Below are positions 6,001 through 9,000 of a stretch of DNA of 25,301 nt, in pieces. The stretch is from a virus (lineage: Duplodnaviria > Heunggongvirae > Uroviricota > Caudoviricetes): IMG/VR virus record IMGVR_UViG_2579779076_000012, positions 1 through 25,301 of that record; one strand, written 5' to 3'. Each line of letters begins with the position of its first letter. Positions within the stretch are counted from its first letter, which is position 1. A program made the position numbers.

Positions 6001-9000
6001 AAGCCGTATGTTTACTTCACATACGAAGACAATGATGGTTTTGGTACTTTTCCTGAGAATATCCCAGACGTGATTAATAATCTTTCTGACGGATATCGAA
6101 TTGTGAAGATGGTTAAAGCTTCAAGGGGTGCTGGTCAATTTATTTATATGACTAATAAGAGCGATGAAGAACTCTGTGAAATTGCTAAACAGAACATCTT
6201 GGCATCACGTAACAAGCAACTTGAAAATGTTAAGTTGTATCTCTCAAGAGAGCTTCAGGCTATGAAAGAGCTTGTGAAAGAATATGAAGATGCTAAGAAG
6301 GTTGCTATGCAGGCTGATATTGAGCAGTTAGTGAAGATTTCAACGAAGTACGCAAAGGTGCTTTGACTATGAATTACGAGGTGATTAATGTTTGAAGAAC
6401 GTTTAGAGACTATTCGGTCTGTTTGCGAAAGACTCCAACTACAACCAAATAGACAAAAGCTACGAATTAAAAACAAACATCATGTTATCACCTCACACAA
6501 ACCAAAAACACGCAAGATTCCAAAGTGGTGTATTGACCGTATTCCTTCTGATGCTCAAATCATAGGTGAAACGGAATTACATTATCTTGTCCGACATTAA
6601 AAAAGAATTGGTTGGGTAAATACGGGGAGCGATTAACCTTAATTGGTTGGTCCTCCCCTTTTTTGTATATGAGGATAGCCTTCTATCCGAAGTCTATGAG
6701 GTGAAATATGAACAATGGCACAGTTTAAAGTTGATGATTTTCTGATTGAGTTAAGTTTTAACTCTCAGAAAGTTTTAAAAGGTCTGGAAAAAGCCGAGAA
6801 ACAAACGATGCAGGTAGCATCACGAATTGAGAAGCGATTGAATAAAGCTTTTAAAGTTAACCCTACGCCTTTAAATGATTCTCTCAAGGTCATGGAAAGA
6901 AATGTCGATAAAACTGTTTCCAAGATTGAGCAGCGTCTTAAAAACACTAAAGCGTTTAAGATTAAAACTGAGATTGAGGATACTTTAAAGCCACTTAGAC
7001 AGCCAAGACAGCCACGAATTAGCGGAAACAGAGCAATTACAGCAGCGCATAGCGTGAATATGAGCAAGCTTCGTGACTTTAATCCTCTGCTTGAGAAATA
7101 TTTTAGAAGCCGGTATTACAGCTTAAGCAGTAAATCCAAGACACTTGGGAACGAAGCTTTTAATCGTGAGTTAGCAAAGTTAAATCAAAATCTACGTGAA
7201 ACACTTTCTAAGTTTAATAAGACCGCCAGCAAAAATAATCACAGTGAACATGCTTCGAATGGTTTAGATGTATTAGCTACAAGTGCAATCAAAGCAGGTA
7301 CAGCTATTTATAGTTTTCAGACAGCCTTAGAAGCTTACAAGAAGGTTATGGAGATTGGCCTGAAAAAAGAAGCATCACAACGAGCGGCACAATTTGTATT
7401 AGGCGATGAAGGCGCTAAACGAGCTACAGAATTTGTTAAGAATCTTGCTAATAATACAGGTGTAGACCAGATTGAAACATTAAGTAGCTTTGCTAAGTTT
7501 TCCGCTGGTGCTGGTGATATGGATACAGGCCAGAAAGAATCCTTATTTAGTAATGTGATTGGTGCATCCAGATTAATGGGTTTAAGTACTGATGAAATTA
7601 ACGGGATTCTGAAAGCTTTCGAGCAGATGGCATCTAAAGGGAAGATTCAAGCTGAAGAGCTACGTGGTCAATTAGGTGACAGAATGGCAGGTGCTTTCCA
7701 GTTATTTGCCAGAAGCCTTGGGATGACTACCGAGCAATTAGATGTAGCTATGAAGAACGGTAAAGTTCTTTCTAAAGATGTTCTTCCTAAAGTATCCGCT
7801 GAAATGGGTAATATGATTGCTAAAGCTGGTGGATGGGAAAAGATTATTAACTCTACTCAGACGCAGTTAGGCCGCCTTTCTAATTCATGGAATAATAATC
7901 TGGCCTTAATGTTCGACGGTTCACAGGAAGGTTTAACAGACTTTACAAGGTCACTGACTAATTTACTTAATTCACTGGGTGGTCAATCTAAAAATCTTGG
8001 TGAACATTTTGGCGACTTGATGAAAAGCATGTCAAACGGTATTGATGATTTAACCACGATTAGCTACCGAGTGCAGGGATTCTTTGACAGAGTGACCCTT
8101 GCTTACAGAGAATTAAATGACACTCAAAAAGCTGTAGCTGATGGTATCGCAAATGGCCTGTTAAGTGCATTAAAGGGACTTGCTGGTATTGTCGCTGTAA
8201 GGTCTGGTATTGGTGCTGTAGGTGGTATCTGGAACTTAATTAGGGCTATTTCCACGCTTGGAAATGTAGCAAATACAGCAGCAGGAAGAATTAATTCACG
8301 TTCCGGTAGTGTTGAAGGTGGTAAAGGAAAATTATCTGTAGCTGATGCAATTACCAAAGTAATGATTGTCGGTATGGCAACTGATGTGATTAACTCCATT
8401 GTTAAACCGTTCTATGAACGTCAGATGAGTAAGTCAGATAATCCAATTGACAAAGTTGTAAGGTCAAAGGTGGAACCCACAGACCAAGCATTGACTGGTG
8501 ACATGAACTCTTTAGCCGCTGTTTTATGGGCTATGGTTCAGGGCAAATCAAAAGATGTTCCACAGTTTTCACCTGAAGCATTAAATAATCTGAAAGGTCG
8601 AGTGGAAACATTCACACAAGATTTAAAGGTTATCAAGCCGTCAGTAAATATTCAGCCTCAGACAATCAATATCACAACTCAGACGGTACTTGATGGAAAG
8701 GTTATTGATGAAAGAACCACATCTCATATTAATCGTATGCAGGAAGATACCTTGATTAGCTCAGCTTACCCAGAGGAATAAACAATGTTAGAACTACTAA
8801 TATTTATTGCCACACATGGCAATCTATTAATCTTTATCTAGTATGACGATTCAACTATGAATAGTCGAATGCTACGTGATTTCTTCTGAACAGATACCAA
8901 CATCAAAAATTAGATTTCACGTAGCTCACGCTTAACAGAATAGGAATAACAACAATGTTTGACACAAAGCAAATTAGATACTCAGGTAAAGATGGTATCT

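Follow-up and report, generated by a model that had tools for sequence, protein, structure and literature searches.

The window examined here is the whole 25,301-nucleotide stretch of IMG/VR virus record IMGVR_UViG_2579779076_000012 (Caudoviricetes, positions 1 to 25,301). It joins a low-G+C island, extending from position 1 to ~11300, to a lambdoid prophage that starts at ~11330. The island contains an open reading frame (ORF) of 270 amino acids (aa) truncated at the window start, a 2.6-kb stretch devoid of convincing ORFs, a number of small ORFs, two tail genes and, on the minus strand, a large serine recombinase gene. The first tail gene (6715-8781, plus strand) encodes a tape-measure protein (Pfam PF20155) with 30% aa identity to that of Felixounavirus VpaE1; the second (8955-9728, plus strand) encodes a 257-aa Dit-like tail or baseplate protein (Pfam PF21821) with 81% aa identity to VpaE1 gp066. 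The subject of this work is a 23-bp motif present in the non-coding part of the island and again just upstream of the Dit-like gene. This 23-mer is one arm of a larger palindromic control element, hereafter the cassette, which recurs in related islands and upstream of cre in P1-like phages.

A near-identical motif at two distant sites

The motif reads AGATTTCACGTAG(AA/CT)CACGCTTA and lies on the plus strand at 1230-1252 (copy 1, AGATTTCACGTAGAACACGCTTA) and at 8912-8934 (copy 2, AGATTTCACGTAGCTCACGCTTA), as an earlier note on this DNA had reported. The two copies agree at 21 of 23 positions. A scan of the whole window allowing up to 3 mismatches returned these two sites in total and 100 dinucleotide-preserving shuffles of the window returned none, a result that rules out chance as the origin of the pair. 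The core 8-mer TCACGTAG is encountered five times in the window, always within 1-10000, for an expectation of 0.43. Copy 1 is embedded in the ORF-poor stretch 813-3450 and copy 2 ends 20 nt 5' of the ATG (8955) of the 257-aa ORF, in agreement with the same note. In most related islands, copy 1 has two more differences from the gene-proximal copies than it has here, and the near-identity of the two copies in the window is therefore somewhat above the family norm.

The earlier note took the pair for a shared regulatory site, such as an activator-dependent promoter, and proposed to look for the motif upstream of other genes in related elements. This search found it before the tape-measure gene. 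A shared functional cis-element is thus strongly supported over chance by the occurrence of the motif in ~70 islands and before a second gene, and the activator-dependent promoter is plausible and unproven. Two features had escaped that first inspection: copy 2 possesses an inverted partner 50 bp upstream, at 8862-8884, and copy 1 is directly followed by a site resembling dif, the chromosomal target of the XerC and XerD recombinases.

Architecture of the cassette

In the islands, the cassette measures ~73 bp and consists of a 23-bp arm, a 27-bp spacer and an inverted 23-bp arm, all given here on the plus strand. Arm 1 (8862-8884) reads TAGTCGAATGCTACGTGATTTCT, and its 9-bp core, CTACGTGAT, is complementary to a sequence of the ATCACGTAG type within arm 2. 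The latter is copy 2 itself (8912-8934), the gene-proximal arm, whose 3' octamer CACGCTTA is invariant across the island family. The spacer (8885-8911) has the same length in the islands, in phage P1 and in contexts with Cre-like genes; outside the islands its sequence is unconserved. The arms share a YACGTR core, and the inverted sequences CTACGTrAAWTCT and AGAWTTyrCGTAG are present at 8872-8884 and 8912-8924 of the window, to be compared with 119-131 and 159-171 of P1. The 27-bp spacing, which corresponds to 35 nt between the 9-mers used in the searches, is common to all 52 distinct island cassettes, P1, Cronobacter phage JK004 and 19 further distinct sequences, and the distribution of gap lengths in a scan of IMG/VR peaks at 35 nt. 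Extra peaks at 37 and 41 nt were considered as palindromes and turned out to be conserved coding DNA.

The symmetry of the element is confined to one register. Over the whole arms, 67% of the positions form Watson-Crick pairs in register 0 as compared with 19-32% when the arms are slid; the 9-bp cores reach 89% with a further 8% of G:T (slid registers 16-40%) and the outer arms 53%. Concerted changes in the two arms are found in the non-coding-stretch cassette of one island (L034) and in JK004, and both fit DNA symmetry as well as RNA pairing.

Distribution across the island family

Loci of the island family, 5 from IMG/VR and 62 from metagenomes, were gathered by means of ORF236. The motif is carried by ~70 related islands of ~11 kb at three recurrent positions, the non-coding stretch, upstream of the tape-measure gene and upstream of the Dit-like gene, and is always oriented toward the downstream gene. 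Most islands have the tape-measure cassette, which was recovered in 30 distinct sequences and is located 2-3 nt before the ribosome-binding site (...CACGCTTAaagaggtgaaatATG); a hairpin and a T-run precede its site. The distance between cassette and gene is variable, from 2 nt to the tape-measure ribosome-binding site and 20 nt to the Dit-like ATG up to a leader of ~95 nt, which contains a hairpin of its own, in another island type. One island type has a cassette directly after the tape-measure stop codon, with no terminator between the tape-measure gene and this second cassette. The window lacks the tape-measure cassette that most of its relatives hold: the site, filled in related islands, is vacant at 6666-6714 (plus strand), and this vacancy is counted among the signs of decay of the island copy in the window. 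A third copy of the octamer CACGCTTA is found at 5636-5643 (plus strand), between a different long inverted repeat (5554-5631) and the ribosome-binding site of ORF236, which it directly precedes. This repeat has 22-bp arms and folds as RNA better than shuffled sequence (z -5.9); across the family, the repeat upstream of ORF236 belongs to three unrelated sequence types that all keep their complementarity.

Related DNA was detected in 548 of 5426 complete Escherichia coli genomes. The cassette itself is present in 432 complete E. coli genomes, at a median of one place per genome, and was never annotated. No description of the island family or of the palindrome was found in the literature.

The same palindrome upstream of cre

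In phage P1, positions 117-174 between loxP and cra read GCGCTACGTAAAATCT, 27 bp, AGATTTCGCGTAGCGC, followed by ACTTAGCA, a ribosome-binding site and cra. The P1-type version is shorter, with arms of 13-16 bp around the same 27-bp spacer. The GenBank record of P1 places here the sigma-70 promoter P3cre (pR1 of Sternberg) of the cra-cre operon, with its -10 (TAAAAT) at 124-129, inside arm 1, and its -35 at 104-109, among Dam sites. Besides the islands, a scan of IMG/VR with the strict motif returned a single additional context, in the P1-like phage L088, which shares 89.6% identity with JK004. In JK004, the cassette is located between a loxP with a LexA box and a 356-aa gene, with cre further downstream, and carries AGAATTCACGTAGCGCACGCTTA, which contains the island octamer CACGCTTA. 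The complete genome of JK004 contains one cassette, and none of the island proteins has a homologue in it. The gene order behind the JK004 cassette (L105, 3340-3440) is the 356-aa gene, a 72-aa ORF and then cre; in P1, cra directly follows the cassette.

A looser scan of IMG/VR revealed the palindrome with the same spacing in the 19 further sequences mentioned above, on contigs ranging from 36 to 62% G+C. Three of these contexts combine a downstream gene for a Cre-like recombinase, 36-45% identical to Cre, with a 34-bp lox-like site of another sequence immediately upstream. These lox-like sites, 25-35 bp 5' of the cassette, are found at ~6600-6640 in L129, ~310-345 in L194 and ~1240-1275 in L191. 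Diverged elements thus retain the lox-cassette-cre module. Four other contexts (L168, L128, L136 and L108) have the cassette upstream of unrelated genes. A recombinase-adjacent placement is not matched in the island, where copy 2 and the tape-measure copies precede tail genes and have no core site near them. The conservation of the palindrome upstream of cre is undescribed in the P1 GenBank annotation and in the literature searched, and the same holds, as far as we could find, for the wide conservation of the cassette and its use by an undescribed phage-associated island.

Copy 1 and its dif-like neighbor

Copy 1 has no partner arm at the canonical 27 bp. A degenerate inverted partner, TAACAGTTTCCCATGTGAAAGTT, is located at 1136-1158 (plus strand), 71 nt from copy 1 instead of 27, and islands of the L034/L054 type possess a canonical cassette at the corresponding site. 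Copy 1 abuts a dif-like XerC/XerD core site at 1252-1279 (plus strand), AGTGCGTAAAA-CGGCTA-TTATGTTAAAA. The E. coli dif sequence, checked in the literature, is GGTGCGCATAA-TGTATA-TTATGTTAAAT; the XerC arm of the island site matches it at 8 of 11 positions (3 mismatches) and the XerD arm at 10 of 11 (1 mismatch). It is the sole site of the window with at most 4 arm mismatches to dif, for 0.005 expected per shuffled window. It occupies the same place in seven related islands, and its XerD arm is invariant in 10 of 10 aligned islands. Outside the family, Seuratvirus phages carry AGTACGTATAA-CGTCTA-TTATGTTAAAT after a motif-like flank, and the 48-bp similarity between island and Seuratvirus arises because both hold a dif-like site with such a flank. 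The dif-like site lies at 3008-3035 in island L003 and at 50899-50926 in Seuratvirus phage SHIN8; the Seuratvirus phages have it once, in their divergent early intergenic region. A repeated Seuratvirus promoter was considered as the source of the motif and discarded, since the motif is single-copy in SHIN8 and the homology is accounted for by the dif-like site.

No recombinase gene follows copy 1 and its dif-like site. Across ten islands, the non-coding segment 1253-1560 shows 94% identity, as compared with only 58-90% for the ORF236 proteins, and the non-coding stretch is therefore more tightly constrained than the genes. We propose that the cassette copy beside the dif-like site is a relic. 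The dif-like site itself suggests that the island and the Seuratvirus phages use the host XerCD recombinases.

A predicted promoter and operator

According to the reading that we favor, and to which we give a probability of about one half, the cassette would be a portable promoter/operator unit that has a -10-like TAnnnT and lacks a -35, and the 23-mer would be its gene-proximal arm. The predicted hexamer, TAGATT at 8911-8916 (plus strand), is situated at the inner margin of the proximal arm, occupies cassette columns 0-5 and displays the A at position 2 and the T at position 6 of a sigma-70 -10 element. Among the 52 distinct tail-gene cassettes, T0 is found in 49 and A1 and T5 in all 52, positions 2-4 vary, and an invariant AAAA stands just before these columns. 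The mirror position of T0 in the distal arm is kept in 2 of the 52, and the proximal arm is therefore under a constraint of its own. Where a -35 would be expected, 16-18 bp upstream of the -10, columns -24 to -18 read AAAGCT/AAGCTA or TGAACA/GAACAG and are unconserved. A sigma-70 consensus scan found no promoter site at either copy, and a sigma-70 consensus promoter is ruled out because neither copy shows a site with a -35. The presence of T-A-n-n-n-T without a conserved -35 fits a promoter that needs help.

Under this proposal, TAGATT would act as the -10, host RNA polymerase would start ~7 nt after it, near 8923, and CACGCTTA would open the 5' leader of the transcript. A factor on both arms, centered at about -47 and -2 and probably host-encoded, would set the timing of transcription. 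By means of the cassette, the island would express each of its two tail genes of Felixounavirus origin as a unit of its own, and the presumed relic beside the dif-like site would descend from the same cassette. Conservation in ~70 islands, gene-directed orientation, a variable distance to the start codon and a fixed palindrome spacing all speak for such a role, as does the presence of the cassette at the same 27-bp spacing before Cre-like genes that have diverged from cre and adjoin different lox-like sites. The P1 homologue supports the promoter reading since it overlaps P3cre. A separate tape-measure transcription unit is consistent with the hairpin and T-run that precede its cassette site.

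Several observations weigh against it. A1 and T5 are also palindrome positions, and independent support for a -10 is thus limited to T0, the A-tract and the invariance of A1 relative to its mirror. Column 0 is usually C (CAGATT) outside the island tail-gene cassettes, and copy 1 of the window reads CAGATT as well. The -10 of P1 lies in the other arm, faces inward and is separated from its -35 by an unusual 14-bp spacer, so that the geometry of that promoter is not transferable with certainty. In the island type with no terminator before its second cassette, that cassette would also be transcribed as RNA, and the tape-measure gene of the window, having no cassette, must be expressed in some other way. 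In two contexts, that of the Dit-like gene and that of JK004, the predicted hairpin outperforms shuffled sequence in folding (z -2.6 and -3.7, respectively). Finally, copy 1 stands in a different context, with no partner arm at 27 bp and a Xer site at its edge. Because the motif is only one arm of a palindrome and this context differs, an RNA-level or a recombination-accessory role retains some weight.

Alternative explanations

The strongest of the alternatives, although an unlikely one, is an element acting at the RNA level. The arms would pair in read-through transcripts to form an imperfect hairpin of 9-23 bp just upstream of CACGCUUA and the ribosome-binding site, and would serve as a processing site (RNase III-type), a 5' stabilizer or a translational control. 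The two favorable folds reported above agree with this idea, as do the cassette placed directly after a tape-measure stop codon and the long inverted repeat that ORF236 has in the equivalent place, complementary in all three of its sequence types. One core pair, which is G:C in 15 and G:T in 37 of the 52 cassettes, would be tolerated by RNA. Outside this single column, however, G:T and A:C mismatches are equally frequent in the outer arms (8% each), a pattern with no clear strand-specific sign of RNA pairing. The four loop-proximal pairs are unpaired in ~45% of cells, an unconserved 'loop' with its length fixed at 27 nt suits protein-DNA geometry better than a hairpin, copy 1 retains the 23-mer without a partner at that distance, and the tape-measure cassette of island L001 folds like shuffled sequence (z -0.01). 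An Rfam scan of 1-11400 (E<=1) returned only two weak unrelated matches elsewhere, and neither a known RNA family nor a tRNA was found as the identity of the element. Arm 2 is followed by CTCACGCTTAAC, and a terminator scan had no match for an intrinsic terminator there.

It is less probable still that the cassette is an accessory or architectural site that marks or regulates a tyrosine-recombinase core (lox in P1-like elements and, in the island, the Xer site resembling dif) and that the tail-gene copies arose as secondary duplications. Copy 1 abuts the XerC-arm side of the dif-like site, and it is on this side that the accessory sequences of the plasmid Xer sites cer and psi lie. The cassettes of P1, JK004, L129, L191 and L194 are 25-100 bp from a lox or lox-like site, and Seuratvirus shares the motif-like flank and the dif-like site as one 48-bp unit. 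Proximity to lox may nevertheless be incidental, since recombinase promoters naturally adjoin the sites of their enzymes. Moreover, there is no recombination core in the vicinity of copy 2 or of the tape-measure copies, and four of the looser contexts simply have the cassette before unrelated genes.

A miniature mobile palindromic element of the MITE or Correia kind, whose spread would explain the copies and whose regulatory effect would be incidental, appears improbable. Terminal inverted arms, the presence of the cassette in unrelated genomes and contexts and the variable occupancy of the tape-measure site among islands would be expected from such an element. Yet the internal 27 bp vary between contexts at constant length, the opposite of what copies of a mobile element do, and the comparison of filled and empty tape-measure sites discloses no target-site duplication. 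The orientation toward the downstream gene is consistent, and the 432 E. coli genomes do not harbor many near-identical full-length copies each.

That the cassette copies a middle or late promoter of a Felixounavirus helper and switches on the island tail genes together with those of the helper is very improbable: the regulated genes do derive from Felixounavirus, the island also holds a Felixounavirus non-coding element and satellites such as P4 use helper-activated late promoters, but the complete VpaE1 genome (88 kb) has no site with up to 6 mismatches, shows the core 8-mer at chance frequency and lacks ATACCCAC, which largely refutes this origin for VpaE1-type phages, the homologous VpaE1 genes abut with no intergenic region, a blastn search of 8890-8960 against the phage collection gave no Felixounavirus match, and the cassette, carried also by P1-like phages that have no relation to Felixounavirus, matches no Lpa-dependent late promoter of P1 either.

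What could read the cassette

Returning to the promoter/operator interpretation, the factor that reads the cassette is probably encoded by neither the helper nor the island, because VpaE1 has no copy and JK004 shares no island protein. The early genes of VpaE1 use an unrelated promoter/stem-loop cassette. The conservation of the arms and of the spacer length, in the face of diverged spacer sequences, lox sites and recombinases, likewise points away from Cre and from an island protein. Most simply, the reader would be a host protein or RNA polymerase itself.

Individual candidates were considered in turn. An island-encoded regulator is unlikely since JK004 holds the cassette in the absence of any island protein. 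One such candidate, ORF93 (93 aa, 4009-4287), has by eye a ribbon-helix-helix N-terminus that finds no backing in the databases, gave only a weak match to DndE (E 0.018) and was set aside; neither the solved structures nor the phage records contain a relative or homologue of it, and its single-sequence AlphaFold model is all-helical and unreliable (pTM 0.43). ORF93 is 100% identical between the window and E. coli 1297KP, where the neighboring ORFs are 72-95% identical. ORF128 gave weak C-terminal helix-turn-helix matches only. Searches of Pfam, PHROGs, PADLOC and NCBIfam with the small island proteins and JK004 gene_62 produced no usable match. The boxA of lambda and the rrn operons (CGCTCTTA versus CGCTTA), the binding site of CRP, the cre-tag of CreB (period 9 rather than 11), the marbox and the ARG box were dropped on by-eye sequence comparison, and a T7-type promoter was dropped as no phage RNA polymerase gene is annotated in VpaE1.

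A broader and rather doubtful generalization can be offered. The 53-bp palindrome, with arms of 13-16 bp and a fixed 27-bp spacer of free sequence, might be a control element that had gone unrecognized, is conserved over a wide range and is read by a host factor itself conserved. It might have been attached ancestrally to the lox-cre modules of P1-like phage-plasmids and have been co-opted by undescribed Felixounavirus-associated satellites, present in ~8-10% of complete E. coli genomes, for the expression of hijacking or decoy tail proteins (tape-measure and Dit-like), with one copy kept by a dif-like site that would resolve the excised element.

If the cassette is a regulated promoter, it would offer a handle on how a common and unstudied E. 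coli island switches on tail genes derived from a virulent Felixounavirus, and this switch would be the step deciding whether the island parasitizes or blocks the phage. Cre-lox is among the most used tools in biology, and the identity of whatever binds the palindrome would explain how cre expression is set.

The island and its surroundings

On the basis of its gene content, the island looks like an undescribed satellite or defense island tied to Felix O1-like phages. Its structural genes are limited to the tape-measure and Dit-like genes, and capsid and terminase genes are absent. As in satellites, it associates an integrase-type recombinase with helper-derived sequences. The Dit-like gene is 92-95% identical at the nucleotide level to its Felixounavirus counterpart; in VpaE1, the Dit-like homologue directly follows the tape-measure gene without intergenic spacer. 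A ~90-bp segment of the window (1770-1861) matches a non-coding element repeated five times in VpaE1 (57.9-58.1 and 59.3-59.6 kb). A homologous 11-kb island resides inside yecE in E. coli 1297KP. The island coordinates are 1-11300 in the window and 11160-22406 in locus L001.

The island copy of the window looks decayed. The recombinase gene (9743-11262, minus strand) is split by a frameshift near 9979-9985, and the homologue of a 184-aa ORF at 3453-4004 has an in-frame stop after codon 79, which fits decay. Strong sigma-70-like promoters were predicted at 3366-3337 (minus strand) and 3373-3401 (plus strand), which form a divergent pair, and at 5229-5257; TGTATATATAG follows each of the two rightward promoters. 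The cluster at 3337-3401 and 5229-5257 may be the main control region of the island. A candidate small RNA of ~165 nt on the minus strand (1735-1935) has a predicted near-consensus promoter (TTGACG-16-TATAAT, 1935-1908) and an intrinsic terminator (1765-1742) and would span the VpaE1-like element at 1770-1861. The words TTAACAG/CTGTTAA occur more than 10 times in 1100-2900, and an 86-nt unit is present twice, at 2670-2755 and 2765-2850, with 83% identity; these repeats are possibly iterons of a replication origin. The adjoining lambdoid prophage (11330-25301), which encodes an integrase, Rha and a replicative helicase, is 99-100% identical to prophages of several E. coli strains and contains short tandem-like repeats at 21942-22069.

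Comparison with known systems

The dif-like site at 1252-1279 shares the 11-6-11 architecture of Xer sites such as dif, the plasmid sites cer and psi and the attP of phages integrating through Xer (IMEX). The likeness concerns that site and not the motif; its center differs from that of dif, and no accessory region for ArgR, ArcA or PepA was recognized beside it.

In cluster K mycobacteriophages, short conserved sequences, the SAS, are found just 5' of start codons and are thought to act on translation; a subset, the ESAS, is preceded by imperfect inverted repeats with a spacer. They differ from the cassette in host, sequence and spacing rules, and the resemblance is one of analogy only. Portable promoter/stem-loop units repeated before individual genes are also known as the PeSLs of T4-type phages. 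The early-gene cassettes of VpaE1 are likewise a repeated portable unit of promoter, palindrome and ribosome-binding site preceding individual genes, as here. In contrast to the island cassette, PeSLs and VpaE1 cassettes have full sigma-70 -35 and -10 elements and a stem-loop downstream of the transcription start, and they show no sequence similarity to it.

Activator-dependent late promoters, under the control of Lpa in P1 and of Ogr/delta in P2 and P4, similarly combine a -10-like hexamer without -35 with a symmetric element and recur before structural genes. Satellite P4 times its morphogenetic genes with promoters of the Ogr/delta type. The cassette arms differ from these late promoters in their position: about -47 and -2, as against -22 or -55. 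The six annotated late promoters of P1 were extracted and have the consensus AAGTGACTT-N4-TAnnnT with a 9-bp -22 box; none resembles the cassette, and an Lpa-dependent late promoter is ruled out by this difference in sequence.

The region upstream of the P1 cra-cre operon is a promoter region and has the same palindrome as the island, with CACTTAGCA, a ribosome-binding site and the first gene coming after it. Upstream of arm 1, P1 has a -35 (TTGATC) accompanied by Dam sites, whereas the island has no such -35. The annotated -10 of P1 faces inward from the distal arm, whereas the island tail-gene cassettes have TAnnnT and the A-tract at the proximal arm. Finally, the genes placed downstream are those of a recombinase operon in P1 and tail genes in the island.

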